Positions 13,887 through 43,100 of a DNA stretch of 57,610 bases are shown here, in pieces. The position numbers were made by a program, and so were the translations under genes. The notes under the pieces were generated by a model that was not told where the DNA came from, made no database searches, and saw nothing but the letters and a program-made list of their open reading frames with translations. How positions within the stretch are numbered: position 1 is the first letter of the stretch; each line of letters opens with the position of its first letter. This DNA is from Nemertoderma westbladi (lineage: Eukaryota > Animalia > Xenacoelomorpha). The stretch is from NCBI GenBank assembly GCA_032718475.1, contig JAUCBJ010008763.1, positions 1 through 57,610 of the forward strand. The letters are read 5' to 3'.

Positions 13887-14208
13887 TATCTGTAGTGGAG
13901 ATTGCCTTGTTTACAGATTTCACCCACTCTTTGTTCTCATTGTATTGTGTTATCACACCGTATTTCCAGCTTCAGTCAGTCAATTATTATCACTCTGTAA
14001 TATTATTGGTTCCCAATTGGCTATCGCACATCTATACGTAGCTAGGAGACATACATCTTTTTGTGGTGGTTAGTTCCAAGTGTTAGTTTTTAGTGCAGTT
14101 ACTGTTTTCCAGTTTACTGTTCAGATTACATTTCACGTATTTATCACACATTATGTTTCTTTACTTTATCATTATGGTGACCACTGACCACTCATGGTTC
14201 ACCATAAT

Positions 14209-14631
14209 GGCACTGGTTCGATATGGGTAGGCCTACCGAGTTTTTTTTTATATTTGTAACTATATTACTGTTCTAGAACACACTGTATACACTATACACT
14301 GTATTGGTACCCCCTTTATATCTTTATTTATTTGGTTAGGTTTGGGTTACAGTGATTAGGTTATGTTGATTGGGTTACGGTGATTTGGCTAAGTTGAACT
14401 AGTTGGCCGGGGGGACGCGCTTCGTGCGTACTCGCTTCGCTCGCCCGGCCAATTAGGGGTAGGGTAAGATTTTGGTTAGGGTTAGAGTTCAACTCGCCCA
14501 TTTACCAAATGTGCTTTGTATTATTAATACATTGTGTTCTAGAACAGTACGGTAATATAGTAACAAATAAACAATTGTAAAATGTAACAAAAAAAATCAG
14601 AAATCTCCATACCCATATCGAACCAGTACCC
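14209..14631. mobile_element. MITE with GG termini and 8-bp TSD (Merlin/MuDR-like)
   Basis: ACCATAAT at 14201-14208 and 14632-14639, with ~80-bp imperfect inverted arms (GGCACTGGTTCGATATGGGTA). The second copy (26452-47170) is split by the BEL element. Confidence 0.75.
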
Positions 14632-14640
14632 ACCATAATA

Positions 14641-15162
14641 TCAAAGCAAACTATTTTCTTCCTCTATGGTTAACATCAATACGGGGGTTACCAAACCGGT
14701 ATACAGGTCAATGGTATTTAACCTTCCTGCAAAGTTGTGAGCAAGGGGCTTTGTTGTCCACATTGGCCTTACAGTTAGAAGGTAGGTCGATATATGGTCG
14801 CAATTACACGCGGTTAAATTGTACCTAACCGGTACCCCTACCAATCGTGACAGCCTGTGAAATACTTTGCTTAAGTTTATGTCGCCACGCCGCATGTTGA
14901 ACTGTCTCATGAATGTTGTGTCAATACACAACGGACAAGGATTTTGAAGGAAAGCTTGGGTTGCTGGTCGGATTAGAACCTTGGGTGAAAGTTCACCACT
15001 ATCCATCTGTAGCTCTATAAGGTCTGATGTAGGTTCGTGTTCACGGTTTAGCAACACAGCCGTATGAAAATATTTTTTGCTTCGATTATTAGGAAGAGTC
15101 CAAAATCCAGTTGGAGTCGTTTGCCTTTCAAAAACGACCTTAGCTCCGGTAAGATAGTCTTT
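14641..15162 (-). pseudogene. H-box/NC (LRAT/PLAAT-like permuted NlpC/P60) gene, 5'-truncated copy
   Basis: YFHTAV..YNLTACNCDHISTYLLT. Matches 47215-48009 up to ~15162, where RTE sequence begins. Confidence 0.7.
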
Positions 15163-17800
15163 TTGGCGACTCGCCCTCGCGTCAGCAGATGATAGTGGCA
15201 ATGGTGGAATTGGTCTATTGATGAATCCAACTGCACATGCAGCATTGGACAAAATAGACCAAATCTCAAACCGCATCATCCGTTGCCACTTCTCATGTTC
15301 TGGAAGACTGGCTAAGAAGTTTCCTAAGGTGGTTCTGATTGTGTGCTACTCTCCAACTAGTGTTGCCCCTGTAGAGGAGGTGGAAAATTTCTACCACAAT
15401 CTACAAGCAACAACTGATGGAGTGGATCAGCATGCATTCTTAACATTCCTGGGAGACTTTAATGCAAGTCTGCATCAATCACCTACATCGCCATGGGTCT
15501 ATAGCAATAGTGTTAACCGAAATTCTGTCCATCTTCAGGATTTTATCTCTGGAAATGGATTGTTTTCGGCTGGAACCCAGTTCAAGAAGCGAACTGGAAA
15601 GCTATGGACTCATAGTGGACCCAGTGGTCACAAGTCCCAGATAGACCATATTCTGTTTCGTAGGAAATACAGGAGCTCTATACAAGACTGTAATGCATTT
15701 ACACTTCGACCCTTCTCCAGTGATCACCGCCTTATTGTGGCCAAGGTAAGACTTAGTCTGCGTGCTAGCAGAACAACGAAATCTGCCTTGCCACGGCATG
15801 ACTGATCCTCTCTGTTGCAACAGCCAAGTGTGAGATCCAGCTTCACACTACAGCTGAGCAACAGGTATGAGGCTCTTGCCTCTGAGGCGGCAGATCACTG
15901 TGAGGGCTATACTGCCTTTACAGAAGCAGTTAAGTTAGCAGCTGCAGAAACAGTTCCTGTATACCCTCGAAACAGGAAAAGGGCCCCCTGGACTGACAAC
16001 AAAATTCAGAAGTGCCGAAATGACCTTCATAAGGCACAGAAAGAGTCCCGACTCAAACAGACTACAGCGGCCAAGAATGCAGTTAAAGCTGCATCTAGGT
16101 CCCTGAACAGGCAGTACTCTGTTAATCTACAGGAGCTAATAAACCAACAGGTTGATGCCATCAATGATGCTGACGACAGCAGGCAATCATCCCAGGCATG
16201 GAAATCGATCAATCTGCTTACTGGGCGGAAAAGCCAACCAACCACCAAGGTTAAGGCTGAATCACCAGCCGATCGCCTCAACGGTTGGAAAGCCCACTTT
16301 GAAAAGCTCCTCAATAATGACAGGGTTTTGCCTGATAACTTTATAGAAGTAAAAGTGTCTGAGTCTGTACTCCCAGATATTCCCATTGGCGATATCTCCT
16401 TTGCAGAAGTGAAGGCTGCTGCAAAGAGCATTAAGACCAATCGTGCCAGTGGAGTAGATGGTGTTCCCCCTGAGGTCTTTATAAAATACCTGAGTGTTTA
16501 AAGCTCATCTATCCCATCATAGTAGACATGTACCGTACAACAAGAGTCCCACAAGAAATGAAAACAAATAAGTTGGTGCCAGTTCCCAAGAAGGGCAACC
16601 TAACACTCTATGGTTCTTTTCGGGGAATCTCATTGATCTCGATTGCTGCAAAACTATACAATAGAATTCTATTAAATCGCATCAGGGATCCCATTGAGAG
16701 ACTGCTCCGTGGAAATCAGAATGGGTTCCGTAAAGGTCGTGGGACCATGGAGCCCATTTTGGCACTTAGAAGGATAATTGAAGAGTTATCAAAAAAGAAA
16801 GACAGGCATCTGGCTGTTATCTTTGTTGACTTCTTCAAGGCCTTTGATTCAGTCTCTCGCAAACGTATGTTTAGCATACTTTCATTATATGGGATTCCTG
16901 ATGAAATTATTGCAGCATTCAGATCAGTATACGATGGTTAGACATTTGTGTCTACTGTTGACGGTGACACAGAACCATTTGAAGTGTTATGGGGCGTCCT
17001 CCAGGGAGACACACTTGCACCATTCTTGTTCATAATTGATGTTGACTATGTTCTACGCATGTCCTTAGATCATCATAATGATGATGGGGTGATGATAACT
17101 CCACCTACTGGCTCCAGAAGTCGAGGAAATCCTGCCAAGTACCTAACAGATCTAGACTTTGCTGATGACTTAGGAGTACTCTCAGAATCACTGAGGGAGC
17201 CCAACGGCTCCTCAGCTCATTAGAACATGCTGCTTCTAGTGTTGGTCTTTTTATTAACTCCAGAAATACCAAAATTTTGACAGTTAACTTTGAAAGTCCT
17301 CAGCAAGTCTCTGATCGGATGAGCATAAGCTCAAAAGATGGTATGCTTGAGCATGTGGATGACTTCTGTTACCTGGGATCATGGATCCGGAAGTCAGGTG
17401 AGGACCTTCGAATACGTAAGGGAAAGGCATGGGCAGCCTAGAATAGGCTTTCCAGGATTTGGAAGTCACCGAGAATTAATCGGAAACTTAAGGTCCGGTT
17501 ATTTATAGCAGCAGTAGTTCCAGTACTCCTCTATGGGAGTCCAAGCTGGGCTCTAACTGCTGAGGACACCACATCTCTGGATGGCAAGTTCAATGCACAC
17601 ATCTCCAACCAGACACTATATAACATTGGAGGTGTCTCATTGGTTCCCCCAAGCTTGACAATAGAACAAAATCGCCTCTGCTTTGCAGGACATTGCTTTC
17701 GCCGTGAGGACCAGCCAGTGCATAATCTTGTACTTTGGCAGCCTCATGGAGTGAATAAGCATGGTGGACAGCCCATGACTTTCTTGAGGATTATTAAGCC
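15163..17800 (+). mobile_element. Decayed RTE-clade LINE (APE endonuclease + RT)
   Basis: CYSPT, GDFNA, QIDHIL, SDH, RGISL, QNGFRKGR, FVDF.KAFDS, GVLQGDTLAPFLF, DFADD. Several stops and frameshifts. Confidence 0.9.
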
Positions 17801-22050: not shown

Positions 22051-24329
22051 CAAAGTTATCAGTTCTTTAGAATTGTCGATTATATAATAATATATCATCT
22101 GAAGCAAAGAAAATTGATCTATATTATATCCAGTGCCATTTATATTGTTTTATGAAATAAATCCATTAATTACTGTGTGATGCTGTGTCTGTCCTTAAAG
22201 GTGCGGTAATCCATGTATCCAGAGTCTGCAGGTCTGAGTGTATGGCAGAGCTAGAGGTAAAGCCGATGTCCAGTCCATACTGCCCTACAGTATGTCACTG
22301 TCAGAATGTCAGACACCTAACGAGACTACAGTATCTGACTACAGTATGTCTTTCAGGCAGTCAGGGAAATCCTGGGGACAAACAAAGCACATATTTTTTC
22401 AGTATTAATACCTAATACGTGTACTATATCCGAAACTGAAAGTTTTAAAAAATGTACCTTTTATACTACAGTATAACGATACAGAAACTATTTACTCTAC
22501 TGCTCTATACTGTATAAAATTTATTCTTAATTAATAATTATTTTTAATCTTTTGTTTAATATACAAATTTTAATACAGTATTTAACATTTTAATATTCAG
22601 ATATTTTCTTGCTATCATGCACCCCGGTCAGCCTGTACAATCAGCGCGTCGCACATCAGCACATGTACACATGTAACTAACAGTACAACATATCGTAGGG
22701 CAGTTGGAAGTTCCGTACCTGCTGACCCGTACTGTATTTTTTCGTTGGAATACATATACTGCAGCACACTGTACACTTCACACACTGCACACTGTTAACA
22801 CTGGACCCACGACCTCCAAGAGATGTGAATTCAATGCAACCACTACACCAAGGTCTCTTTGATTAAGAAAATGAATTAAATAATTATTGAATGCTTTTAA
22901 ATTTAATGTTGTAATTTAGTGTCGTAATTCAAAAACATGATACCACCCCACCCCCCCTTCCCTAACTTTTATACAAATTTTAATGAATAGATGATATGAA
23001 ACAGAGTTACAGTAGTTTCACCTCCCTCATCCGTAGTAACTGAGACAGAATTTGTATTTTTGCTTTTTATTCTTTAGCAACAAGCGTTTGAAAAAAGTGT
23101 CACCGGCGGCGATATCATCACCAGTCCCATCTCAGTTATTCAACCTTATATTAATTTGTTGGTTCTGATGGAAAGCTGACCATGCAACGATTCCAAATAT
23201 GAAAAAATGGAAATTTAGAAAATACAGTTGCTGAGATATGGGCTTTCGAATGTTGAATGTTTTTTCACGGCGCAAGGCTATTTTTATATTTAATAAATAA
23301 ACCATGTTCTAGAACATGATGTAAAAACGTAACTAGGGGGTGTTCGATAAAGTATGTCACGCACTAGGGGGGGGGGGGGGGGGGGGGGGGGTGTCGACTT
23401 TTGTGACGGTTACGGCGATGTTCTAGGCTTTAATGTTAGATAAATTATAAATTTTTATACTACAGTACTGTATTATACTATTTAAACTATTAAATTTCTT
23501 AGTGTTTTAATTTAATATTTGTTTATAATAAAAAGTCTTTATAATTCAAAAAATAATAATTCTCTTTAGTTGAAGTGGGATCTTATAACATCATTTAATA
23601 CATTTTGAATTTATGAATTGTCAAAAACTAGTTGAAATTTTCTTGTACTGTAGAGTTTTTTTTTCACCATCGAATTTTAACCATCCGCTCCCAATTTTTT
23701 TCATCTCTTTTTTTTTAACCATTTGAACTTCATTTTTGAGATTTTTGCAATATTTTGCGACATATTGTCATATTTTGCCATGTTTTTAACCAAATCTTTA
23801 AGTTTTTAACCATTTTGTCAAAATTAAAGGCTTGTTTATTTCTTTAACCATTAACCATCGGGCCAGAATCTTTACTAAATGGTTTAAAAAAAACTCTACA
23901 GTAGTTTGACAATTTTTGTCAGTCTGGTAATTATATTGGACAGACCATTTGGATTGGTGCAACTCTACAATCAATGAAACTACATTATTTACGTATGAAC
24001 TTCCAACCATATTGCGCTCATATACAGTAGAGTCTGAACATGTGAACAATTTTCAGGAAATTGGTATACATCCATTCTTAAGCGAAAAATTTTGTGAAAT
24101 TTGGTGACAATAATTTGTGATAAGTTAGTGTAAAAAAAGTAGTTGAAATTTTACTGTAGTTTGACATTTTTTGTCAGTCTGGTAAAAGCAACGTTGAAGC
24201 AGTAAGAGCAATTTGGAGTTAGCATGACACAGGGATTTTCAATTCAATGGAGTTGAAACTTATTTTGAATCAGCCACATCAGAAGGGGATGCAGAAAAAG
24301 AGCCAAAAACATACCAAAATCGGTCTGAC

Positions 24330-25922
24330 GCTGAAAGCGAATTTTCTATATCTCAGCGGCCAAAAAGGCCGCTGAAAGCGAATTTTCTATATCTCGGCGG
24401 CTAAAAAGGCCGCTAAAAGCGAATTTTCTATATCTCGGCGGCTAAAAAGGCCGCTGAAAGCGAATTTTATATGTCTCGGCGGCTAAAAAGGCCGCTGAAA
24501 GCGAATTTTATATGTCTCGGCGGCTAAAAAGGCCGCTGAAAGCGAATTTTATATGTCTCGGCGGCTAAAAAGGCCGCTAAAAGCGAATTTTCTATATCTC
24601 GGCGGCTAAAAAGGCCGCTCAAAGCGAATTTTATATGTCTCGGCGGCTAAAAAGGCCGCTGAAAGCGAATTTTATATGTCTCGGCGGCTAAAAAGGCCGC
24701 TGAAAGCGAATTTTCTATATCTCAGCGGCCAAAAAGGCCGCTGAAAGCGAATTTTCTATATCTCGGCGGCTAAAAAGGCCGCTAAAAGCGAATTTTCTAT
24801 ATCTCGGCGGCTAAAAAGGCCGCTGAAAGCGAATTTTATATGTCTCAGCGGCTAAAAAGGCCGCTGAAAGCGAATTTTATATGTCTCGGCGGCTAAAAAG
24901 GCCGCTGAAAGCGAATTTTATATGTCTCGGCGGCTAAAAAGGCCGCTGAAAGCGAATTTTCTATATCTCAGCGGCTAAAAAGGCCGCTGAAAGCGAATTT
25001 TCTATATCTCGGCGGCTAAAAAGGCAGTTGAAAGCGAATTTTCTATATCTCGGCGGCTAAAAAGGCAGTTGAAAGCGAATTTTCTATATCTCGGCGGCTA
25101 AAAAGGCAGTTGAAAGCGAATTTTCTATATCTCGGCGGATAAAAAGGCCGCTGAAAGCGAATTTTCTATATCTCGGCGGCTAAAAAGGCCGCTGAAAGCG
25201 AATTTTCTATATCTCGGCGGCTAAAAAGGCAGTTGAAAGCGAATTTTCTATATCTCGGCGGCTAAAAAGGCAGTTGAAAGCGAATTTTCTATATCTCGCC
25301 GGCTAAAAAGGCCGCTGAAAGCGAATTTTATATGTCTCGGCAGCTAAAAAGGCCGCTGAAAGCGAATTTTATATGTCTCGGCGGCTAAAAATGCCGCTGA
25401 AAGCGAATTTTATATGTCTCGGCGGCTAAAAATGCCGCTGAAAGCGAATTTTATATGTCTCGGCGGCTAAAAAGGCCGCTGAAAGCGAATTTTCTATATC
25501 TTGGCGGCTAAAAAGGCCGCTGAAAGCGAATTTTCTATATCTCGGCGGCTAAAAAGGCAGTTGAAAGCGAATTTTCTATATCTCGGCGGCTAAAAAGGCA
25601 GTTGAAAGCGAATTTTCTATATCTCGGCGGCTAAAAAGGCAGTTGAAAGCGAATTTTCTATATCTCGGCGGCTAAAAAGGCCGCTGAAAGCGAATTTTCT
25701 ATATCTCGGCGGCTAAAAAGGCCGCTGAAAGCTAATTTTCTATATCTCGGCGGCTAAAAAGGCAGTTGAAAGCGAATTTTCTATATCTCGGCGGCTAAAA
25801 AGGCAGTTGAAAGCGAATTTTCTATATCTCGGCGGCTAAAAAGGCAGTTGAAAGCGAATTTTCTATATCTCGGCGGCTAAAAAGGCAGTTGAAAGCGAAT
25901 TTTGTACGTCTCGGCGGCTAAA
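24330..25922. repeat. 41-bp satellite array, about 39 copies
   Basis: Unit GCTGAAAGCGAATTTTCTATATCTCGGCGGCTAAAAAGGCC, with no spacers. Confidence 0.97.
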
Positions 25923-26755
25923 ATTTTTTATCTCTTGGATGGACGAATGACAATTTGTTTGCTAAAGAGAGATTTTAGAAAGTCCAATTTTTGTCAGAAC
26001 CATATTTGTTAACTCACAAACATACAGTACCTGACCAAACAAAATCAATTAGTTTTCATTTAATTCCATTTAATTTAATTTAATTCAAAGCGAAATATAA
26101 ATCATATGACAGCCAAGACTTTACTAACATATCTGTAGTGGAGATTGCCTTGTTTACAGATTTCGCCCACTCTTTGTTCTCATTGTATTGTGTTATCACA
26201 CCGTATTTCCAGCTTCAGTCAGTCAATTATTATCACTCTGTAATATTATTGGTTCCCAATTGGCTATCGCACATCTATACGTAGCTAGGAGACATACATA
26301 TTTTTGTGGTGGTTAGTTCCAAGTGTTAGTTTTTAGTGCAGTTACTGTTTTCCAGTTTACTGTTCAGATTACATTTCACGTATTTATCACACATTATGTT
26401 TCTTTACTTTATCGTTATGGTGACCACTGACCACTCATGGTTCACCATAATGGCACTGGTTCGATATGGGTAGGCCTACCGAGTTTTTTTTTATATTTGT
26501 AACTATATTACTGTTCTAGAACACACTGTATACACTATACACTGTATTGGTACCCCCTTTATATCTTTATTTATTTGGTTAGGTTTGGGTTACAGTGATT
26601 AGGTTATGTTGATTGGGTTACGGTGATTTGGCTAAGTTGAACAAGTTGGCCGGGGGGACGCGCTTCGTGCGTACTCGCTTCTCTCGCCCGGCCAATTAGG
26701 GGTAGGGTAAGATTTTGGTTAGGGTTAGAGTTCAACTCGCCCATTTACCAAATGT

Positions 26756-27899
26756 TGTAAAGGCTTTTGCGTAATTAGCCGGTTATTTTACCCGTAAAGT
26801 ACTCTGTAGTTGGTTTAACAGGCATAAAAGGCCGTGTCCTTGCTGTACTGGTGTTTTAGAGGACATAAAAGCCATTTCTTCTGTATGTGTACTTTAGCGG
26901 ACATAATCCGCAGTTTTATGACGCAATGCGCCAAATCCTCTGTAAACAGTGTGGCTGCCATGGCGACGGCTAACAGCTGATATTGCCACATAGAACATCT
27001 CTTTGTTCTTTGTTCTCTCTTTGTTCGGTCGACCAATCAGAGCGTTTTTTTGCCTCTGTGTTGGAGATTTTATATAGAAACTAGGGAAGTGAGTCAGTAT
27101 GTGATTTTTGTCCACAGCCTACAACACCGGCGTGGAACCTCCGTGTTTCAGTCTTTAGTTCAATATTAGTAGGCTTAATTATAGAACGTATATCCGTTAT
27201 CATACTTAACTAACCATTCATACCTTAAACTTTGTACTGCTATTTACTGTCGGTTATTCATTATATTTGTTGATGGAATATTATATTCGGAATACTGATA
27301 AACAATCAGACACCCCAATCTTCTTGATATACTAAAGGTTAGAGAGACCGGATACATATAACGATTGCGACTTACATTAAGTGGTTTGAAGTGAATCTAA
27401 TGCTATTTTATAGGCCCTACACGTATTGTCTGTTGTTCTCCTTATATGTGACTAAAATTAGTGAAGGTCGGCAGATTAGTGTGCAGCATTGTGCAGTATT
27501 GTGTATGATTGTGATTGATAACGAAGCATCTCCTAAAGAATGCGCCATATACGTGAATCTATAGCCATCCCGTTGTGTATAGTTTAAGTCATAACTCTGT
27601 TTATATATTTAAAGCGCCACGTCCTAAAGGAACTGTTAATATTTCCCGAAAGTGAATAATATTTGTCAGAGATTATATATATTACGATCAGTCGAATAAT
27701 ACAGTAGGCCTACCCCGCAATACGGTTAGGCTTCCGAATCCAGTCTCCTGGGTATATCCAGCGGGTGAATGATCGCGCATAGACTGGATTCGGATAATGT
27801 AGTGTATGAAATACTTGTTATAGGCTAAAGACTATTTATCATCTAAAAAGACATCCAAATTTGGCAGGTTAAACTGCTAAAGTTCTGAAAGCGCGAACA
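26756..27899 (+). repeat. 5' LTR of BEL element 1
   Basis: TGTAAAGG...GCGCGAACA; about 10 substitutions versus 45903-47046 counted by eye. Confidence 0.96.
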
Positions 27900-27920
27900 A
27901 TAATGGATATACCTTCTGTA
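27900..27920 (+). promoter_or_regulatory. Non-tRNA primer-binding site candidate, complementary to 27180-27200
   Basis: ATAATGGATATACCTTCTGTA pairs with TATAGAACGTATATCCGTTAT (2 G-U pairs, 1 mismatch). The pairing covaries in element 2. Confidence 0.65.
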
Positions 27921-28180
27921 TTGCAGTAGGCAATAAAGCTGAAGTACCGGCAACCGGTACCCAGTAGGCCTGACTACCTAACCACCCGGACCGGTACCTA
28001 CAGCAGTACAGGTACAGCAGTATTATTCGATTTTGATAATTATATACCGGTAGGCCTTAATAATTAATCAGGGACGGCCGCCCTGGTTTTTTATTGAGAT
28101 TTTACTTATTTCTGTCAAGTTTTATTTATTTGTAGGCTAATATTGAGCAGAAGGTGTGTAAGCCTGCTCAGATTGTACAG

Positions 28181-28755
28181 ACAATTTGTAGGCTAGACTG
28201 TTGTCTGACTGTTGTTAAGTCTGAACGGATTGCAGTGTGTGTAGAGCATCTGTCCGATAAAGTGCTAGTTAGGAACGTAGGGGCTTCAAGTGCTGTGAGG
28301 TAAACCCCCTTTGAAAGAATAAGTCGTACTACTAGGTTAGAACGCATACTAACTAATCATTTCGGAGTCTGCATATACTGTAGTTTATTTAGGCTTGATA
28401 GTAGTCTGCCAGCGTTCGGTCTGTACTTTGTTTGTGTAGTCTATACAGGTAGCGTATAATTATTATTTAGATAATTTGTAGGCTGGATAGTTGTCTGGCT
28501 GTTGTTAGGTCTGAGGAAATTTCGGTGTGTGTAGAGTGTATGTCCGATAAAGTGCCAGTTGGGAACGTAGGGGCTTCCAGTGCTGTGTGGTAAACCCCCT
28601 CTGAAAGAATAAGTCGTACTACTAGGTTAGAACGCATACTAACTAACCATTTCGGAGTCTGCATATACCGTAGTTTGTTTAGGCTTGATAGTAGTCTGTC
28701 AGTATTTGGTCTGCATCTTGTTTGAGTAGTCTGTACGCGTAGCGTAATATTTATT
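28181..28755 (+). repeat. ~290-bp tandem duplication in the BEL 5' leader
   Basis: Two diverged copies starting near 28181 and 28471; single copy in element 2 (~54195-54475). Confidence 0.85.
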
Positions 28756-30080
28756 ATTCAGAGTTTATGCGATTATTCGCAACATTCATTCCCCAAGTTT
28801 ATTCCTACAGTAATTGTGCTTGTTATACATACCGTTATAGTTAAACTAACCCCGGTACTACATCAGGGCTGCTCGGCGTAGGTAAAGACTGGAGATTTTG
28901 TGCTTCGGTCACTCCGGCAGATACCGTGGTTCTTTTAGCTGTTCAAGTATTTTAACTACTAATTATTTGTTGTATAAGTACTTGTACCTAATTTAGGGTT
29001 TAGTGTACAGTGCTTTCCGAAGGCAATTAGTGTGTAGGCAGTATATTTGTGTTGTAAAGTGGTTAATAGGCACGTTGGTTCTGGTAGACCGCGGTAATTA
29101 ACTTCTAGGTAGGAACACTCCGTGATACATAACGTAGTACTTATAGCGATACGGCTATAAGTCGTCAGACGGTGGTATTTTTCTATCTGGACAACGCAGT
29201 ATATTTACTACTACTTATTATTTTCAAATACTGTAGTACTCTGTCCGTTGTAATAACCAGATTTCTAACCCTTTGTTAGGCTGGTTAGTAGACTTCTTGT
29301 AAAATTACCCTAAAAAATTCGTACTTGTAAATTTTTGTGTTTATTTAGAGATTGTAATCTCACCCCGAATTGTACGTAATTTGTAGTATTAAGTAACTTA
29401 GGTAAATTAGAATTATTTGTTTTAGTGTCCAACAAGTAGCACTTCACTGAGAGCGCACAGCTTCTGTGTAGTGACTCCCCCAGAAATAATAACATTTATT
29501 TCAAATATTGACAAAACCCATTAAACGGGTATATATATATTATAAATCAACTCAAAGATTTATAAATAGTAGGCCTGCCATACAACAATTAGGTCTAAAT
29601 ATCAGTTGGACTACTGCTTAAATAACGGTAATAAAGTAAGTTAAAGTAACCAAGTAACCCCTGAAATTTCAGAAATTCAGTTATTCTAAAATAACTGACA
29701 TACCGGTATTTACAATAGGCTTATTATATTTATTTCTATAAATTTTAGGCTGAAATTATACCGGTATTCTGTAATTAATTCTAGTTAATAATTATACTTA
29801 TATATACTATAAGTGTAAGCTGCATACCGGTATTCACGATAGGCCTATTATATATTTATATATATTTGTGCTGAAATTACCTACCGGTATTCTGTGACAA
29901 ACCTAGTCTGTAATAATACTTATATACTATAAGCATACCGGTATTCTAATATATTATATATATATCACGCTACACTGAGTAGCAGTATCGGTAATTAATT
30001 ACTAGGCTAACAGTGATACTGAATTACTAGACTTGCTTAAACTGTAATAGAGCAGTAGGCATTGAACTGTACAAACAAAC

Positions 30081-33000
30081 ATGTCTGACACTAAGCAAAA
30101 CCTGTCGGACAGCCTCCTAGATACAACCATCTGTGACCCAGACAGGAGTGTGGAACGTGAGAGACCGAAGTTCAATTCACCTCCTACTGTAAGAAAGATC
30201 ATCCCTCCAGTAGTAATATCAGACCCTAGGCTGGTCCAACACCGTAGGTCTATCATAGGCACTCGAGCTCAGGTCAAGCGGGACCAAGAAGCAGCGGAAC
30301 CGCAACAACCCGCGAGCCAAGAACTTATTTCTCAACGGCCCGACAGCTCCAGTAGTGCGGATACTGTAGAGCTGACACCCGAGCACGGAGCAAAGATGAC
30401 AGATGCGGTTTATTCGGACCCCCTTCTCATCCTTCCTGCAGCCGTACTCACTAGGTTATTGATTGTGGTGGAAGAACACCAGATCGATTGGGCGAGAAAT
30501 AAGCGATCGACTAAAGATAGTTATGCGGGATACACAAGGGAAGAACTGAAGTCTATTGTCGAGTCGCAATGGAACTTCCCCGGACCCGGACTCCCGTTTG
30601 ATTTATCAGAAGCTGCCTGGGAAGACATACACAGGATGGGAGTAACCAAGGAAACCATCGATCCAGCTGTGTGGAAGAGGTCCGCAGCCGGATACGCACA
30701 GGGATTCTTCAGCTCTATGGAGCGATTAAAAGAACAACTGTTTCAACAACCCCAAGGACCTCAAGAGCAGGGACAGCTGCTTTATCAAGTTAGAGAAAGA
30801 ATTCTATGAATCAGGCTAATCTTATCGGCCTTTGAGGAGGCTTCTAAAAGAAGACAAGACACGTCGTTGCAAGTTGCCGTAAAGACTTGGTTTCAACGGG
30901 TGAGTCTCCAGGTTCAAGGAACGGCTCAGTGGAAAGTTCAACTAGATGAGCGCTCAACCCATGGAGAATCAACAGACGCTACTTTTTCCCAAGTGGAAAG
31001 TGAAGCGACGGCAGAGAAACCGCATAAGAGGGATGCCATTGACATCTATCTGTCAGACTATCAACGTTTTTTAGGTGATGAAGAGTTGAGGAGAAGGCTA
31101 GATGGACTTAGCCCTAATAGTGAAGGAACCCAGCGTGTGTTGGACGCCATCGATGTGGATATGAGAGCTGCGAACCAAGCTAAATTTGATGAACAACTCC
31201 GCATCACTAGAGTCCAAGAAGAACAAGTGAAGAAAAAACGTATAGAAGACAGAAAGGCAGCAGCAGTGGCAGCAGCAGTGGCAGCTGCAGAAGCAGAAAG
31301 AAAAGCGGCAGTGGCAGCGGCAGAGGCAGAAGCGGAAAGAAAAGTGGCAGCGGCAGCGGCCGAAGCGGAAAGAAAGGCGGCAGTGACAGCGGCAGAGGCA
31401 GTAGCAGAAGCAGAACGGAGAGCTTCTGAAGAAACCACCCAATTAGAATTGGAAAACATTCAGGAGAATCAAGACTGCATAAATAAACAGTTAACAGCTA
31501 GTAATATGCAGATGATGAGTCGATCTACTCCCAAAAGACAGGGATATACATCATCTGAGGAAGGCGATACCACCGATACTGAAGGCAGAGGAAATAGATC
31601 TCGTCTAAGCAGACGTAGAAGAACATCCCACCGTCAGAAATTGCCTGATCTGCCCCCAGCTGTTAGAAGGCAACTAAATAACACAAACTTAGGTAGTATA
31701 GAACCCACAGACCAAATAATTAACATAGAAAGACTCCCTACTATAGTAGATGAGCCTGAAATAATTAGGCCTGTTCTCGAAGCAACTCCTTCGGTGATAG
31801 AGACACCTGTACTCCCTGAACCTACCTCTAAATTCCCTCTGCACAGCACAAAGCTACCTGTGCCCCACAGAATCACCCCTGAAATTGTTCATGTCCTGGA
31901 CTCCAAGCGAAATATTCATGACTTGTCGCCCATTGTCCCTCGTCCGCCCGCTACAACGTTGGCGCCTCCCGCTTCGGCGGTCGAGTGGGTGGATGAGAGA
32001 CGATGGGGGATGGATCTCCTGCTCGGGCAGATGCAGGAGACCGTTCAGCAATTCAAGGGCACAGTAAGGGAAAGTAGGTTAGAGTTGCAAGAAGTGCAGC
32101 AAAGTATCGCGTTAGAACGCGATAAATTAGTAAATACACAAAGGGGTATACCACCAACCCCGGTAACAATGTGTCAACCTGTTAGGTCTGAAGTATTTCA
32201 TGCGCAAGGTGTGGTGCCTACACGCATATATACTGCTAGCGAAGTGGAAACTCCTATAGTGAACCCTATTAAGGTTAATTATAGACCTGTTGATAATGAT
32301 ATTCCCTATAGACCTGATCATAATCCGAGAAATTTATATACCGATAACTCGATAGTAAATAACACGATGGCCCAAGAAAGTTTTACGCGTCAAATGGCTA
32401 GAACCGAAGCACGTCAAGCGGTAAAGGTGGGAGAGATAGTCAAGTTCAATGGAGATGAGATGAAATGGTTACCTTTTAATGAATATTACAAAGATAACAT
32501 ACAGAACTCTGTGCTATCTAATGGAGAGAAACTTAGATTCCTCATCGAGTGCTTGGAAGGATCTCCCAAGTTAATGGCGTTAAAGTTTATTGGACATCCA
32601 GACGGATTAAGACAAGTTTGGGATACACTAAACATCAGGTATGGTAATAGGAATAACATAGCTGGGTATTTGTATGCAAAGTTGGTAGCGCCCCGAAAGT
32701 TTATTAGCAGCGGGATTATAGAGTTTTCCGATGAGATTCAGGAGATCTGCAGACAATTAGATTGGCTAGGTAAGTCTCATGAGTATCAGAGTGCTATGGT
32801 TATTAGAGCAGTGGCTTCTACTTTACCGAAGGGTGGAGTAGGTACACGCTGGGACAAGAAAGTGTTATATATGATGGAACAACAACAACGAGACCCTACC
32901 ATGGCTGATCTCATGTCATTCTTGGATGGCGAAGTGAAATTACAGCTCATAAAGCAGTCCAGAGAGAAGACACCGGAAAACAAGGTAAGTGAGAAACACG

Positions 33001-36000
33001 TCTCTAGGAGAAAGGTGACACCAGTGTGTTATACAGACGACAGCGAAAGCCAGACTTCTCAAGGAGAGGATAGCGGGAAAGACACTGAAAGATCTTATTA
33101 TGTCAATAAAACGCCTAAAGAACAGGTAAATAAATTCAAGTCTCAAACCAATGACAGGAGAGAACAGGTAAGAAAAACTCCTCCTACGTCTCCCAAGAGA
33201 ATTCAGGTGAGAAAGCCCGAAGAAAGAACGAGTGTGCACACTGTTATTCAAAATAAGGTAAGTAACATCAAACCGAAATGTGCGCTATGTGACGGGACCC
33301 ACCGTTTGAATATGTGTGATGAATTCCTGAAGAAATCATTAGCGGAGAGACGGGAAGTCATGTGGGATAAGCGGTTGTGTTATAATTGCCTCAGACAAGG
33401 ACACCAACGGCGAACCTGTTACTCTGACACAAGGTGTGCAAAGTGCGGTGCAAAACATCATATCTTGTTGCACACTGAATTTGAGCGAAACAGCCAGAGT
33501 CAGGTAAGTGATTCCGAACTACATGTCCAATTCAGTGATGTGAACGACACTGACCAAAGTTCTGAGATGGAAGGATTCTATACAGATGAATTCTCCGACG
33601 AAGGTGAATCCTGTTACATGATAAATACCGCAGTGTATCGAGCACTTACATATGAAAAAGACACAGACAGCGACCTCACCCTAACTACTTCTGATCGACA
33701 ACCATCTTGGAAAGCGCCACCTTCCAATGTAGGAATCCGAGAATTTCCTGTAGTACAGGTAAGGGTCCACGGACCTAAAAGGAGTTATGTAGTGAACGCC
33801 CTCCTTGACTCCGGTAGTACAGGAACATTCATCGATAAAGAACTAGACGAAGACATCTTTGCTGGACAACCCAAGTTCCGAACTAAGCTAAACATGTCAG
33901 GAATTATGCAGGTTTGGAAATCTACAGTAATAGCGGATTATTATGTAGGTGCGTTGTCCACCCCCCAGGATGAACTAGGAGAACATAGTATAAGGTCAGT
34001 AAAAATGGTAGCAATAAAGAACTTCGCTACCACCCAAGTGGAACCTTATAACTGGGATGAGGACGATTTCACCCAGCAGCTAGAAATACCTAGATTCAAC
34101 ACCGATTACCCTGGAGTGCAAATACTCATCGGTCAAAACGCGCATGAAGCGCTCGAGACATTGGAGAAACGGCCCGCTCAACCGCAACCACTACAAGCTT
34201 ATGCGGGAAGAACTAGAGTGGGTTGGTACTTTACTGGCCCTTCCCGTAGAACTCTCATGGAAAGATTACGGAAAGACCAGGTATGTCAAGTGAGAGAATG
34301 GGAAGTCGAGGGCAGTGAGTTAGATGATCTAACTGAGGGAACACCATACTCCTCAGATAATGACGATGTCCACCAACTTTTCGATGAGGAGAATACCATC
34401 GATCTCCTTAAGGAAAACGAGACTTGGCAAAACCAAGTGAACTTATGTCAGCTCCTTCTTCCATCAGAACGAGACGACTATAACGAAGAACTTAATGACG
34501 TCATTGAACGATATAATGCCAAGACTCGGGATGAACATGCCGTACGATTCTTTACTCAAGAGGCTGTAGAGCCCAATTCCTACGATAAGGCCCTATCGGT
34601 AGAGGAAGAAAGAGCCAAGCAGATCCAAGAGACAACTACACGTTTTCTTAAAGATCAAGGTAGATATGAGATCGGTCTACCTTTCCGAAAGCGAGAACCA
34701 AAGTTCGTAAACAACAGACCCTTGGCGGAGAAAAGAATTGCTCAACTACATTGACGCCTTACGGCAAATTCTTTAGCTAAAGAAATGTATCAAACGCAGT
34801 TGAAGAAATTTATTAGCAAGGGATATGCGGAGCTAGTACCGGAAGAAACACCTATAACTGAGAGAACGTATTATTTAACTCACCATTATGTTCCCAAACC
34901 CGGTAAACCCCATGAAGTATGAGTGGTGTTTGACGGCTCCGCCCTCTATATGGGCCAATCCCTTAATTCTGAATTGTTACCCAGACCCAACTTACTCCAA
35001 TCCTTGTTGGGAATACTCTTAAGATTAAGACAATATTCAATTGCTTTCGCCTCAGATATAGAAGGCATGTTCTTACAAGTCAAGGCGCCTGATAGGGATC
35101 GAGACAGCCTACGATTTCTGTGGTGGCCTGAAGGAGACCTCAACCAGAAACCGGTGGAGTACTGGATGACCATCCAGGCTTTTGGGATAATCTCGAGCCC
35201 TTCAAATGCCTGTTCCGTGGTGCGCACCACTGCGGATGACAACCGAGACGCCTTCTCTAAAGAGATGATTGACAACATCAAGCGAGATATATACATGGAC
35301 GACAATCTAAAGTCCCTTCCATCAGTCGAAGAAGCCATTGATGTCGCTAAAGGAACGGTAGAGTGCTTAAAAAGAGGTGGATTTCGATTAACTAAATTCA
35401 CCAGCAACTCCCGTGAGTTTCTGGAGTCGATCCCGGTAGAAGATCGAGGAGCGAAAGACCTGGATCTAATAAAAGATGATCTCCCAGAAACTAAGACCCT
35501 TGGTTTGAAATGGGACACCGAAAGAGATATCCTGTTTTTCCAACTAAAACAGCGAGATAATCCAGTTCGGACTAAACGGATTTGTTTAAGTATCCTGAGC
35601 ACTTATTTCGATCCATTGGGATTTATTAGCCCAGTTATATTGATTGCTCGGAGTTTAGTACAACAAATGTGGCTTGAAAACCACTCATGGGACGATCCAC
35701 TTAAGGGAGAATTATTAAAGAAGTGGATGAAATGGGAAGATTCTCTACCAGCCATCGAGAACTTTATAATTTCCCGTTCATATTTTGGTCATGTTCTCCC
35801 TACGTATTCCTATCAACTCCATGTGTTTGGAGACGCCAGCGATATGGGAATAGGTATAGTAGCCTACCTAAGGGTGGAAACTCCGGATGGAATCAAAGTC
35901 GCCTTGGTTACTTCTAAGGCATTGATAAACAATAAGTTGAAAGTTCCTCGAGCGGAGTTAAAAGCGGCTCTATACGCTACAGCCATCGGCCGGAATGTAA

Positions 36001-38170
36001 CAGAACAGATCGACTATCCACTGGAGAAAACTGTCTATTGGACCGACGCTTTACTCGTGTTGGAGTATATAACCAATGAAGTCTGTCAGTTCAGCGTCTT
36101 CGTTACCAACAGAGTAGCCATTATACTCAGTCGCACAACGATGGATCAATGGAGACATTGCCCCGGAACGATTAATCCAGCAGACATCGCCTCCAGGGGA
36201 GCAACTCCACAAGAACTGGTAGACACTCCAGACTGGTTAGGTGGACCCGACTTCCTCTACAAAGAAGAAGAAGAATGGCCTGGCCTCCTCATCTTACTAC
36301 AGCAGAGATTAGACAGGCCAAGGGAGCGGAGAAAGTCAAACCTAAAACTCGGGCGAGTAAATCGAAGTTATTCAAACCCATGGTAGATCTGTCTGTACTA
36401 CATATTTCCGGAGACGACGCTTTGGATCAGAAACCCACAGCCACAAATAAACTTGTTGTGGAAATCCGTGAGAAGGATTGGAAATCTGGAATACCAGACG
36501 TCTCGCAAGGACTCTCACCTCTTCTGCAGAGAGCGATACATCACTACAGTTCCTGGAATCGGCTCTGTAAGGCCGTTACATATTTAAAGAGATGTTTTCA
36601 CCATCAATACTCCGGGATGAAGGCCAAAGGTGATACCGCTCCAATAACATCAGTGCAGGTCCATGTTATTAAAGATCTTCCCAAATATAAGATACCCGAC
36701 AGGTTTCTGAAGGAGAAGATCAGTTATCAGGAGCATGAAGAAACCAACAAGCAGATGCTGAGACTCCTGCAATGCTATTAGGATTCCGATAAGTATTTCC
36801 TGTTGTTGAGAAATCCACAGATGCGCTTAAGGGATCGTTTCTCTAGCACAATGATAGATGGGTTGATACGTGTTGGAGGAAGATTAACGAATGCTCCACT
36901 ATCCTTTGACACTAAGTTTCCCATACTCATTAGAAATCTTGAAATACAAGTCAAGATGATTGTAGACATTCACAGCAAACTTTATCATGCTGGTAGGGAA
37001 CGAGTTCTTAGCGAAATTCGAACTCGCTATTATTTTTATAAACCCCGTAGAGCTCTGAACCAAGTTCTTAGGAACTGCATACCCTGTAGGAAAGCATTCA
37101 GTAGGCCTTTAACACAGCGAGAGGCAGAATTACCTAGGGAACGAGTAAGCTTCTATGAACCACCCTTTACTAATACCGGTGTGGATTTATTTGGTCCCAT
37201 TGAAGTATATCGTGCTAGGACTATAGTCAAGAGATGGTGTGTCATCTTTGTTTGTATGACTTGTAGAGCTATCCATCTCGACATGGTGAACGATTTATCT
37301 ACCAACAGCTTTCTACTAAGCTTACGACGACAGATCGCTCGCTTTGGCACTAGTAACACGATGAGATCTGATAAGGGAACAAACTTCATTGGTGCCAACA
37401 ATGAAATCAAAGCTTACGTCAAAGATTGGAACCAAAGACAGGTGGACGATCAGCTACGAGTAACAGCGTCTAGCTGGACCTTCAACCCCGCCGACGCCCC
37501 TTGGTGGGGAGGAAGTTGGGAGAGATTAATAAGAAGTGTGAAGACAGCATTTCACTTTATAGTGCCTTGCCGCGCGTATCTCACCGACGAACTTTTGCGG
37601 ACGTTAATGGAGGAAATCGCCGCCTATCTCAACGAGAGACCACTTATGCCAGTCTCATCGAGTCCCGATTCCCTGGAAGCGCTAACACCCGCGCATTTCC
37701 TACTAAAGAAACCTGTAGCCATGCTCCCACAATCGGAAATCACAGACGGAGACGAATTCTGTCGGCAAACTTGGCAACTCATGCAGTTGTTATCCCGTCG
37801 TTTCGCTGACCATTTCGAAAAACATTATCTGCCCACGCTACAACTTCGAACTAAGTGGTTTGCGCAGCAAGAAAACGTCAGCGCTGGAGACATGGTTCTT
37901 ATTGTGGATGTAGATCTTCCACGTAAGCGGTGGCAGACAGGTCGTATCATCGAGACTCACATCTCGGATGACGGTTTGGTGCGATCGGTAGAACTCGTCG
38001 TCATGCGACGTAACTTCAAGAAACCGGGAATCGTCTTTGAGACACAGCAACTCAATCGCCCAGTTGGTCGTTTATGTTTACTGGAAAGAGACAGAGAACT
38101 CTCCGGAAACTATGGGAGGCAAGATAGATACTCTTCCCACGACCACCTCCCTAATCCAACCAACATCTAG
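30081..38170 (+). pseudogene. BEL/Pao gag-pol polyprotein, disrupted
   Basis: Gag core FNGD..W..F, three Cys/His knuckles, protease ALLDSGS, RT YMDD, RNase H FGDAS / WTD / NPADIASRG, integrase GVDLFGP / SDKGTNF / GGSWERLI. Stops at 30807 and 34752; frameshifts near 36290 and 36780. Confidence 0.96.
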
Positions 38171-39212: not shown

Positions 39213-39350
39213 TAAACTGGTGCCCATCCTAAATATTAATTATTAATATTTACAAAATCTGTCAAATATCAGATCCTTTAAAATTCTAGTCGATTAAGAT
39301 ATCGTAGCACTTACCGATACTCTTAAAAAGACAAAATTCCTAGAATCAAG

Positions 39351-39953
39351 GATAATGATATTACAACGCTCTATCACCATCTGGAAAAGCTGCAGGACGA
39401 TAATGAGAACTCAGAACAATATTCGAAAAATTACAACCTTCTCTTCCATGGGATTTCTAACGATAAAGCTGCAGTGGATATCGCTCTTAAATCTGCTGGT
39501 ATTTCCCCATCGGACATAGATATAATGCACCGAATGCCGCCACCAAGATCTGTTGGTAGATTTGCTGATACCAGATCGTCGGCAGCTCGATCGCGCCCCC
39601 TTATCGTAAGATTCATTTCCCGAGAAAAACGTCTATCGGTTATTAAGATGAAAGAAAAACTCCCCAATAATGTATACTTAACTGAGCATCTCACAGCGCG
39701 TCGATCCGGTCTCCTACGTTCTCTAAAACAACTCAAGAAATCAAAGTTGATTCACTCAGCATTCTCTCGCAATGGTTCTATCCTCTGTAAAATAAAACCT
39801 GACGATTCGACACGCACTATTCGATCCTCTTCTGATATTGATGATATTCGAGGGAGAGTTGCCGGAACCAAGATGAACGTCACCGTAGGAGTTAATGATT
39901 CTACAAATCTTATCAATGAGTCCATTCTTTCTACCACCAGCAACTGCGACTAA
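39351..39953 (+). CDS. LINE ORF1 C-terminal part (RRM-like)
   Basis: EQYSKNYNLLFHGI, IDIMHRM, RPLIVRF, VYLTEHLT; the 5' end is missing. Confidence 0.85.
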   Translation, partial: DNDITTLYHHLEKLQDDNENSEQYSKNYNLLFHGISNDKAAVDIALKSAGISPSDIDIMHRMPPPRSVGRFADTRSSAARSRPLIVRFISREKRLSVIKMKEKLPNNVYLTEHLTARRSGLLRSLKQLKKSKLIHSAFSRNGSILCKIKPDDSTRTIRSSSDIDDIRGRVAGTKMNVTVGVNDSTNLINESILSTTSNCD

Positions 39954-40135
39954 CGTAAATCTTCGCCTGCTCGCCTAATAAACCTCAAATTACCATGCAA
40001 ACTCGGTACCGGTTCCGTGTAGGTTATCTGAAATTTTTTAGTACACAGTAGTACAGTGCAGTACTTCGAACTATTGGGATTTTATTTTGACATTGCCTTT
40101 GCCATTATTTTATATTAAATTCCAAAATATATTAT

Positions 40136-43100
40136 ATGCCAGTCAATGACCCTCGTACATCCTGCCATTTCTGCTTTTCAAAATTTAATAAAAAAGATAG
40201 TAAAATAGTATGCGATATCTGTAAGAATTCTTACCACCAGCAATGCGGTTCTAATATTACTACTCCATTATTGAATTTATCTCATATTTACTGTTTATTC
40301 TGTTACAATGATATTTTTCCTTTTAATACTATTCCGCCCGATGACTATGATATTTTTGAAAGCAATGACATTGATATTTTATTACCCGAAAATTATATGG
40401 ACTCTAATAGCACTTTTAAAAATATTGACCCGGACCAAAATTTAAATAATATAAAAACAAATTGTCAGTATTATAATGAACAAAATTTTAATAACAAGTT
40501 TGATTCTAAAAATACAAATTTTTCAGTGTTTCATGTAAACTGTAGAAGCCTAAACAAAAATCTAGCGCCTACCTCTGACTTCCTATCATTACTAACCCTA
40601 AATTTCGACATACTAACTTTTACAGAAACATTTATTACAGATGAGACGGATCTATCTTACTTACACATTGACGGCTACTCAACCCCACTTATTACAAACC
40701 GAAAATATGGGCTAAAAAACCGAGGGGGGACTGCCATTTACCTTAAGAACGGAATTGACTTTACTGAACGGACTGACATAACTATACCGAACTGTGAATC
40801 TACTTGGGTTACTATAAACAGAAATTCAAATAATAATCACTCCAAAAGACAAATATTAATTGGAACTATTTACCACCCAGACTCGTGCAATACTAACGAT
40901 TTCATAGATAATTTCAATTCGGTTTTAGCTTCGATCAATCAAAATACAACTGACATAATAATAACCGGCGACATGAATATAGATTTATTGAAACGCTCTA
41001 ACCACGCCAATAACTATATACAAACTATAGAATCAAATGGATTTGAACAAATAATAGACAAAGCAACTAGAATTACACCATACTCCCGAACTTTAATAGA
41101 CCATATATCAACTAATATTAACAATAAAACAGTATCATCTGGAGTTTTCCAAAGCCAACAAGGATCAACTGATCACTTAGCCACTTTTGCAATCATACAA
41201 AATTATTCCTGCCACTTTACGCAACAAGAAATGAAATATGTATATGATTACTCCAAATATAACAAAAATAAATTTATTTCAGACATAAAAGATATTAATA
41301 ACTGGACATATAACAAAACAACAGTACCCATAGAAAAACAATTCGAAATATTTTACTCTGATTTTCAAAATATAACCAATAAACACTTGCCAAGAAAGAT
41401 CCTAGAAAAAAAAGAAATTCCTAAAAAACCTTGGATGACTCCCGCGTTAGTACAATCAACAATCAAGAAAAATGACCTATATGCAAATCTAATTACTAAC
41501 CCTACATGCGAAAAAGAACAGTTTTATAAACAATACCGCAATAAACTAACAACAACTCTTAGAAAGGCTGAAAAAAACTACTACCACTCAGAATTCGAGA
41601 AACACAAAACAAATACAAAAAAAACATGGCAAACAATAAACAAAGCACTAAATAAGTCAAATAACTTGAATACTCCAAAAAAAATTAGCATATCAACAAC
41701 AGTAGGAACCATAAATAAAACTCTCCCAAAAGAAATTGCCAATGTACTTAACCAACACTTCGCTAATATAGGTCCAGAACTAGCAGAGACAATTCCGAGA
41801 AGTAACCGTAACCCAACTAGATTCATAAACCACCGTAAGTCAAACTCATTCTACCTATCAGATACAACGCAAACTGAAATACTATATTACCTACTAGACC
41901 TAGACAACAACTGCTCTACTAATGACCTATTCCCCATACAACTAGTTAAAACTGCAGCACACGACCTATCACCTCACTTAACTTACTTAATTAACAAATC
42001 AATTAATAATGGAATTTTCCCAAAAGTACTAAAACAAGCAAAAATTACCCCAGTCTACAAAACAGGCGACCCTACAGATAAAAACAACTACAGACCAATA
42101 TCGGTCTTGCCGCTATTTAGCAAACTCTACGAACGTATAATTAATACCCAACTCATAACCTACTTAGAAAAATACTCAATTCTATCTCACTGCCAATACG
42201 GTTTTAGGAAACGTTCTACTACAACAGACGCTATACTTACAATCACAGAAAGACTACTTGAATCTCTTGACCATCACGAATCATCATGCCTAATTTCTAT
42301 AGATTTAAAAAAGGCTTTTGATACCCTGAACCATAGCATCCTCTTAAAAAAATTAAACTGTTACGGTATCAGAGGTCTTCCGCTCCAACTATTCACAAGC
42401 TTCCTCAATGATCGCTCACACACAGTTGTTATAAACCATACACACTCCGACCCTCTTACCCCACATTGTGGTACCCCACAAGGTGCTATCTTAAGTGCTA
42501 CTCTATTTTTATTGTATATAAATGACTTACCGAACTGCACAAATTTACATACTACTCTTTTTGCCGATGATACTAACATACTGTACAGTCACACCCACAA
42601 GGACACACTAATTACAAAAGTAAATAATGAACTCTCGAAAATTGATCAATGGCTCACTGACAACAAACTATCCCTCAATCTTAAAAAAACCGAATATCTC
42701 ATATTTTCAAATTCAAATACTACTATCACTCAAAAAATAAAAATAAATAATGTTAATATCAAACAAACAAATGAAACAAAATTTTTGGGCATCTGGATAG
42801 ACAATAAATTATCTTGGAAATATCACTGCTCCTACATACTGAAGAAAATTTCGAAATCCTGCGGAATATTTTTTAAACTTCGCCATATCTTGCCATTAAA
42901 TATACTAAAAATGATTTTCTATGCACTGATACACCCATATATTCAATATGGTATAATATTATGGGGAAACACGCACCATAAATACATATACCCACTCAGA
43001 GTAAAAATAAATAAAATAATTCGTGCAATAACATTTAATCATTACCAAGCTCATTCAAACCCAATCTATAAATTTCTGGAAATATTACCAATAGAAAAGT

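Follow-up and report, generated by a model that had tools for sequence, protein, structure and literature searches.

Between the putative priming segment of a retrotransposon in Nemertoderma westbladi and the end of its 5' LTR lie about 700 nt (27201-27899), and the question is what this stretch does. A preliminary description proposed a conserved, structured RNA domain in R-U5 enclosed by the priming helix, possibly a ribozyme that generates the primer end. The window analyzed here is a contig of 57,610 nucleotides (JAUCBJ010008763.1), and all positions refer to it. We reach a different reading, which we hold at roughly even chances: the 700 nt would comprise a primer-locking RNA switch and 3'-end processing signals, and not one folded enzyme. 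The labels R and U5 for parts of the LTR are putative throughout.

Two related BEL/Pao elements in the window

The region belongs to the first of two related elements, whose parts are as follows.

26756-27899, plus strand: 5' LTR of BEL/Pao element 1, TG...CA, 1144 bp, repeated at 45903-47046 with 99.1% identity
45903-47046, plus strand: 3' LTR of element 1, which carries a second copy of the primer and anti-primer described below and has no PBS after it
30081-38170, plus strand: gag-pol of element 1, several ORFs broken by stops and frame changes, with BEL/Pao domains
52638-53837, plus strand: 5' LTR (52638-53825) and PBS (53826-53837) of element 2, with the primer at 53082-53093

Element 1 is a member of BEL/Pao (Belpaoviridae), with Pao-type gag-PR-RT-RH-IN domains between its LTRs. 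The Pfam families DUF1759, Peptidase_A17, Integrase_H2C2, and DUF5641 follow one another in this order. The polyprotein is not that of a Ty3/gypsy chromovirus (the Tf1/sushi group), since its families are Pao-specific and no chromodomain match was found in element 1. The RNase H was assigned by acidic motifs that we take to be diagnostic, and a PDB search gave no match. The top protein homologues match at 37-42%, and in the tree element 1 occupies a long branch without a close relative. Its two LTRs differ at 10 of 1144 nt, and a 5-bp target site duplication flanks it. An uninterrupted paralogue of the target sequence (13887-15163) represents the empty site, with the insertion point at about 14506-14512. 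Element 2 starts at 52638 and is cut off by the window end. Among the public contigs of one organism (10228 contigs), these elements form a large, varied family.

Several other features were observed in the window. An in-frame stop (30807-30809), which may reflect either decay or readthrough, parts a 242-aa ORF from a 1295-aa gag-protease ORF in the same frame. A LINE with a short ORF and a 1084-aa RING-APE-RT ORF is nested within element 1 at 39327-43390, and an extra ORF of 273 aa without a Pfam match lies between the integrase and the 3' LTR (44305-45126). Arrays of a 41-bp minisatellite are found at 24329-25923 and 49056-51838 (39 and 68 copies), both in a segment duplicated at 96% identity. 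No tRNA gene was found in the window.

Pairing of the primer-binding site with the LTR

27188-27200, plus strand: putative self-primer, 13 bp (one G-U) with the PBS, putative cut at 27200/27201
27900-27912, plus strand: primer-binding site of non-tRNA type, not beginning with TGG and directly adjoining the LTR end
27071-27078, plus strand: TATA-like box preceding the primer by 117 nt, with a putative start site near 27100

No tRNA-type PBS beginning with TGG follows either 5' LTR. The PBS is complementary to the element's own LTR, as in Tf1-type elements, and this complementarity is kept despite sequence change between the two elements. The 13 bp in element 1 were reached by 0/300 shuffles, and the 12 bp between 53826-53837 and 53082-53093 in element 2 by 2/300. 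The cognate duplexes have energies of -13.7 and -12.6 kcal/mol, as against -1.5 and -2.5 kcal/mol for the cross-element ones (the element 1 slice being off by one base). The loop between primer and PBS measures 699-732 nt in the two elements. A primer built by splicing was also considered for both and rejected, the best spliced match being only 4-5 nt.

The position of the primer should be noted. A weaker TATA-like box is found in element 2, 114 nt upstream of its primer, and a TATAAA occurs there just upstream of the primer end. Judged from these boxes, transcription would start near 27100 in element 1, and the primer would be internal, about 90 nt into the RNA. Such a start puts the primer inside R, so that each RNA would carry it twice, and the timing of the cut must then be controlled.

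A second partner of the primer inside the LTR

27516-27523, plus strand: anti-primer arm I, pairing with 27195-27202 and spanning the putative cut site
27526-27543, plus strand: CTAAAG-loop hairpin, third arm of the anti-primer three-way junction
27547-27554, plus strand: anti-primer arm III, pairing with 27186-27193
53415-53421 and 53444-53453, plus strand: anti-primer arms of element 2

The primer zone has a second predicted partner, a split anti-primer located at homologous positions in elements 1 and 2. Arm I consists of eight Watson-Crick pairs in element 1 and seven in element 2, two of them compensatory. Arm III has eight in element 1 and 10 in element 2, with two compensatory pairs and a matched insertion. 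Differences in the primer zone between the elements are matched in the anti-primer in 5/6 cases, and all 6/6 differences in the 39-nt module 27516-27554 keep the structure; element 2 loses one terminal pair of the anti-primer. The hairpin 27526-27543 gains a pair in element 2 through the letter at 27530, which is the common variant of the family. The sole change in this module in the 3' LTR of element 1 leaves a G-U pair in arm III. The family variants at 27523, 27904, and 27723 would break pairs unless their partners have changed, the partner places being thinly covered or at an edge.

The 16 and 17 Watson-Crick pairs of the split anti-primer were reached by 5/1000 and 1/1000 dinucleotide shuffles; the pairing was spotted post hoc in a pair table and this test was designed afterwards. 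When the primers are swapped, their pairing with the anti-primer falls to background (893/1000 and 611/1000 shuffles). The covariation analysis as a whole compares two divergent copies, elements 1 and 2. We consider it highly probable that the pairings of the primer with the PBS and with the anti-primer are real.

The junction and the primer:PBS helix are mutually exclusive, both using the primer zone 27186-27202. In the predicted ensemble of the element 1 5' RNA, the primer:PBS helix has a probability of 0.93, and in an LTR-only RNA the junction has one of 0.97-0.99. For element 2 the model prefers the junction also when the RNA includes the PBS, with probabilities of 0.94 for arm III, 0.36 for arm I, and 0.0 for primer:PBS, suggesting that the PBS state needs help. 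The constrained ensemble energies of the two states lie 2 and 5 kcal/mol apart, of about 220. A primer with two partners whose letters change in step with it probably indicates a switch that hides the primer, rather than a large ribozyme.

Conservation of the region

Identity between the two elements rises from 51% in U3 and 62% at four-fold sites of gag to 79% in 27230-27899 and 91% in the leader. The R-U5 identity (513/649) exceeds that at four-fold gag sites (80/130, p 4e-5) and is below that of the leader (1317/1444, p 8e-14). The reported conservation of R-U5 thus holds relative to synonymous sites, which argues for constraint, and does not hold relative to the leader. It should be noted that the neutral baseline is the gag of a possibly mosaic pair (U3 51%, leader 91%), so that recombination could inflate the apparent constraint. 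The LTRs do begin with an unalignable part, as described before, which extends over about 430-470 bp instead of about 370 bp and shows 50.6% identity against 38-45% for shuffled sequence.

The region is non-coding. A coding role was ruled out by frame-breaking indels and by the lack of a long ORF common to both elements, the longest open stretch being 73 codons.

The 2-kb leader itself (28600-30065 compared with element 2) is far above gag synonymous sites at 91% identity and contains a 126-nt identical run. Several windows of common structure were found in 29080-30160 (alignment z -3 to -4.4). Such likeness might stem from recombination in the recent past or from the leader being another conserved RNA domain.

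Folding of the 700-nt region

The idea of a single structured domain of about 700 nt is not borne out by folding. Over the whole region, folding is unexceptional (z -0.9 and -1.8 for elements 1 and 2). Only 27720-27945 is more stable than shuffles (z -3.4 and -4.1; 0/200 shuffles each); the 5' 520 nt (27200-27720) are not (z +2.95 and -0.23). Folding of the alignment gives the same division, with z +1.0 and SCI 0.46 for 27228-27720 and z -5.4 and SCI 0.67 for 27720-27899. The helices common to both elements number 20, as against 20-23 in a column-shuffle null. Strongly covarying helices number four, as against null means of 1.3-1.6, a count reached by 5/150 and 14/150 shuffles. With two sequences the power to detect tertiary folds is small, and an unknown tertiary fold is compatible with these numbers. 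The long-range helices 27210/27342, 27275/27645, 27328/27483, and 27369/27590 were rejected as not above the null, with a predicted probability of 0.

The Infernal search against Rfam that had been suggested as a check gave no match in either element down to E 5-10; the sub-threshold matches were snoR117 (E 0.28, outside the region), CRISPR-DR14 (E 3), and RT-5 (E 9.9). What stands of the proposal of a functional cis-acting RNA is its link to priming, through the primer:PBS helix, the anti-primer junction, and the 13-bp stem described next, and not its extent as one domain.

The 13-bp stem and the LTR end

27717-27725, plus strand: likely poly(A) signal position, AATAAA in element 2 (at 53632) and degenerate in element 1
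27734-27793, plus strand: 13-bp stem (27734-27746/27781-27793) closing a conserved branched loop
27860-27881, plus strand: hairpin of 8 bp close to the LTR end, with the same sequence in elements 1 and 2 and a U5-IR-like position

The 13-bp stem had been described with two compensatory pairs in element 2, and both were found. In addition, element 2 has one one-sided change (U-A to U-G) and one broken pair. The 12 pairs of element 1 that are also formed in element 2 have probabilities of 0.84-1.0. The stem has the likely poly(A) signal on one side and a GU-rich tract on the other, a position suggesting that it takes part in 3'-end formation and that R is long, as far as sequence can tell. The AATAAA at 53632 is the sole one in the element 2 LTR and follows the primer at a distance of about 540 nt; neither AATAAA nor ATTAAA occurs in the element 1 LTR. 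The LTR-end hairpin has pair probabilities of 0.6-1.0 in both elements.

The segment 27717-27725 can also pair with the leader at 27916-27924, a weakly predicted helix (probability 0.03 and 0.0) with one compensatory pair between the elements. A conserved leader hairpin just past the PBS (27916-27935) competes with it. In the folding model, the pairing could silence the 5' poly(A) site, its predicted probability being low.

The invariant block and the CTAAAG repeats

27613-27652, plus strand: 40-nt invariant block, 40/40 identical, a candidate protein-binding RNA or DNA element

The block reported as about 40 nt long and identical in both elements is exactly 40 nt long. A run of this length has a chance of 0.004-0.017 at 77-80% identity and of 0.13 at 85%. 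Among the family variants listed, 0/52 places fall in the block, which is weak evidence as the variant tables are incomplete: one lists 40 of 232 entries, and several of its common variants are absent from the other. A 22-nt pattern taken from it had 0 matches in metagenome contigs. The first letters of the block have a glmS-like look, which found no support from Rfam or motifs.

As for the motif CTAAAG, which had been said to recur in hairpin loops, only the two quoted copies tend to lie in such loops in both elements, the second hairpin being weak (helix probability 0.3-0.6); those at 27825 and 27877 are predicted to be partly paired. The five copies in element 1 compare with 2/500 shuffles in which any hexamer with at least two G/C reaches five, and the three in element 2 are unremarkable post hoc (429/500). 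The shorter CTAAA is enriched, with seven copies in element 1 and five in element 2 (0/1000 and 8/1000 shuffles). For the block and the CTAAA repeats, the most likely role would be to bind protein, for packaging or 3' UTR control, which is a default guess; the earlier suggestion of a packaging or RT-recruitment structure may apply to the block and the CTAAAG loops. About 500 nt of the region are conserved without a stable predicted fold, and the proposed switch gives no account of them.

Priming signatures in other BEL/Pao loci

We fetched 80 metagenomic BEL/Pao loci and counted the 10 families with a repeat-defined LTR end, leaving out the rest, including L123 and L178, in which the match itself had served to place the LTR end. 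In 8/10, a perfect complement of 11-15 nt to the own PBS was found in the LTR, contiguous in three and present in five only across a predicted intron. The other 2/10 have TGG-type sites, which we take to be of the tRNA type, and no such complement. In the five splice-dependent cases (L126, L153, L151/L152, L166, and L176), the complement appears only after removal of a GT..AG intron of 76-186 nt in the LTR, with 0/150 shuffles each; the LTR end of L126 was moved 10 nt by the analyst, and the donor of L152 needed a relaxed rule. In L190 an intron acceptor is found in the 5' copy, and the 3' copy is intron-less.

Between primer and LTR end these relatives have 77-175 nt, indicating that the priming signature does not need 700 nt. 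None of the 80 loci resembles the region in sequence (best E values of 0.38 in blastn and 2.7 in nhmmer). An internal anti-primer was supported at p<0.05 in 2/10, by a test that missed elements 1 and 2 themselves (p 0.41 and 0.14), and none was found in L133 and L200. Near-copies of the PBS that can pair with the primer lie inside the LTR of L166, between primer and LTR end (p 0.002), and of L190 (10 bp, probability about 1.0). It is possible that these are simpler anti-primers. Scanning 1717 ACA sites for contiguous complements gave background-like matches only, a 14-nt pattern had only chance matches in viral contigs, and no relatives turned up when viral contigs were scanned at the protein level.

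A possible mechanism and its alternatives

In the switch that we favor, newly made RNA would hold its primer in the three-way junction, which would keep both the 5' primer copy and the copy at the 3' end from early priming or cutting. Once the RNA is in the particle, the 5' copy would be placed on the PBS with Gag as chaperone, and the element's RT/RNase H would then cut at 27200/27201, by analogy with Tf1. Synthesis of minus-strand DNA would run through the 700 nt. Through the 13-bp stem, the poly(A) signal would come to lie beside the GU-rich tract, and the LTR-end hairpin would be the equivalent of the U5-IR. If true, the covarying junction is a concrete, testable answer to the timing of the cut and names the exact helices, so that the original idea of a 700-nt domain is narrowed to a few of them.

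Other readings should be weighed against this switch. The junction might instead be the place of the cut itself, made there by RT/RNase H or a host nuclease before the primer moves to the PBS. Arm I covers the putative cut and reaches 1-2 pairs past it in both elements, and one conserved unpaired C joins arms I and III into a near-continuous duplex; however, the Tf1 cut comes after primer:PBS pairing, according to the available text of PMC7175516, and several relatives have no internal partner. We regard such a cut as unlikely. More doubtful still is a role in packaging, dimerization, or as a 3' UTR or enhancer alone, in which Gag or host factors recognize the conserved blocks, whether as RNA or as DNA, and the anti-primer helices do no more than close a structural domain. 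It would suit the absence of a stable predicted fold in the best-conserved block, the enrichment of CTAAA in both elements, and the presence of the region at both RNA ends if R is long, but it leaves unexplained why the helix partner is precisely the primer, excluding the PBS. If the elements are simply related by descent with exchanged U3, the conservation is ordinary and the helices are due to chance. The leader is indeed more alike than the region, the general helix count is at the null, and the available part of PMC3601003 describes LTRs that vary but keep their poly(A) and end motifs. Against this stand the three-way compensation among primer, PBS, and anti-primer, the failure of cross-pairing, and the stem z-scores of -3.4 and -4.1, and we judge descent alone to be very improbable.

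The two remaining alternatives concern how the primer end is made. A ribozyme in this role, as proposed at the outset, is disfavored by the lack of an Rfam match and of a hammerhead core and by the short loops of the relatives. The hammerhead core motif consists of CUGANGA and GAAA around a three-way junction, and neither element contains it on either strand. The upstream product of a small ribozyme ends in a 2',3'-cyclic phosphate, which reverse transcriptase cannot extend directly; this wrong end chemistry counts against a small ribozyme as the primer maker. A large ribozyme of an undescribed class would use arms I and III to guide the substrate, and a core in 27230-27720 would cut 27200/27201 without protein, leaving a 3'-OH primer that then moves to the PBS. 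The non-coding region conserved above synonymous sites, the invariant 40-nt block, the guide-like helices over the cut, and possible crossing helices in both elements (e.g., 27275/27645 and 27369/27590) are compatible with it, but the crossing helices are no commoner than in shuffles, with predicted probability 0, neither element has an Rfam match or a plus-strand group II 5' motif, and in the relatives, which have no sequence in common with the region, loops of 77-175 nt go with the same priming signature. We therefore find such an enzyme improbable, if somewhat less so than descent alone. The least credible possibility is that the primer is the transcript 3' end, formed by processing at 27200 in the 3' LTR, with all 700 nt being U5. 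The TATAAA just upstream of the primer end in element 2 could be read in this way, but AATAAA and ATTAAA are both missing from the element 1 LTR, the single AATAAA of the element 2 LTR is ~540 nt downstream of the primer, and the anti-primer, lying downstream of the RNA end, would be missing from the 3' copy.

Comparison with known systems

Large ribozymes that leave a 3'-OH, namely group I, group II, RNase P, and lariat-capping ribozymes, hold the bases beside the cut with short guide helices. Element 1 differs from these in that there is no U-G pair at the cut and no GUGYG after it, and its guide arms are simply antiparallel.

The closest likeness in priming is to Tf1, Tf2, and Tj1 of the Tf1/sushi group of Ty3/gypsy, in which, as here, the PBS is complementary to the own LTR and no tRNA is used (available text of PMC7175516, PMC4600332, and PMC5341516). 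Priming requires cleavage where the primer helix ends, and in Tf1 this cut is made by RT/RNase H (PMC7175516 and PMC5341516, as far as available). The Tf1 primer is nt 1-11 of the RNA, whereas that of element 1 would lie ~90 nt inside, judging from the TATA-like box. The Tf1 group belongs to Ty3/gypsy, whereas the elements here are BEL/Pao and enclose a loop of 699-732 nt. A covarying internal anti-primer, predicted in the elements here, is not mentioned for Tf1 in the available portions of PMC7175516, PMC4600332, and PMC5341516. A likeness of another kind is found in the 5' RNA switch of Ty1, where an intramolecular partner also masks the priming sequence before packaging (PMC9503155, available part). 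In Ty1 it is the PBS that is masked, through pairing with CYC5, until Gag loads an external tRNA, according to the same part of that source; here it would be the cis primer, in a three-way junction.

The ICTV profile of Belpaoviridae (PMC8742986) agrees with element 1 in domain order, Pfam families, an LTR within 0.2-1.2 kb, and a 5-bp TSD. It differs in that a host tRNA primes at an 18-nt PBS, which element 1 lacks; the same profile describes BEL/Pao replication as poorly understood and tRNA-primed. Self-priming is listed for Tf1/sushi, Tcn1, and some copia groups in the available text of PMC6317226 and PMC4600332, and the main text of PMC3118150 contains neither "PBS" nor "primer". Neither self-priming or splice-built primers nor an anti-primer in BEL/Pao were found in the literature searched, a scope outside which most subscription papers, Repbase, and supplements fell. 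On sequence grounds, the elements would thus function like Tf1-type self-priming elements within BEL/Pao, the new feature being the covarying anti-primer. If true, the switch gives exact helices to probe in a family that has been described as tRNA-primed (PMC8742986).
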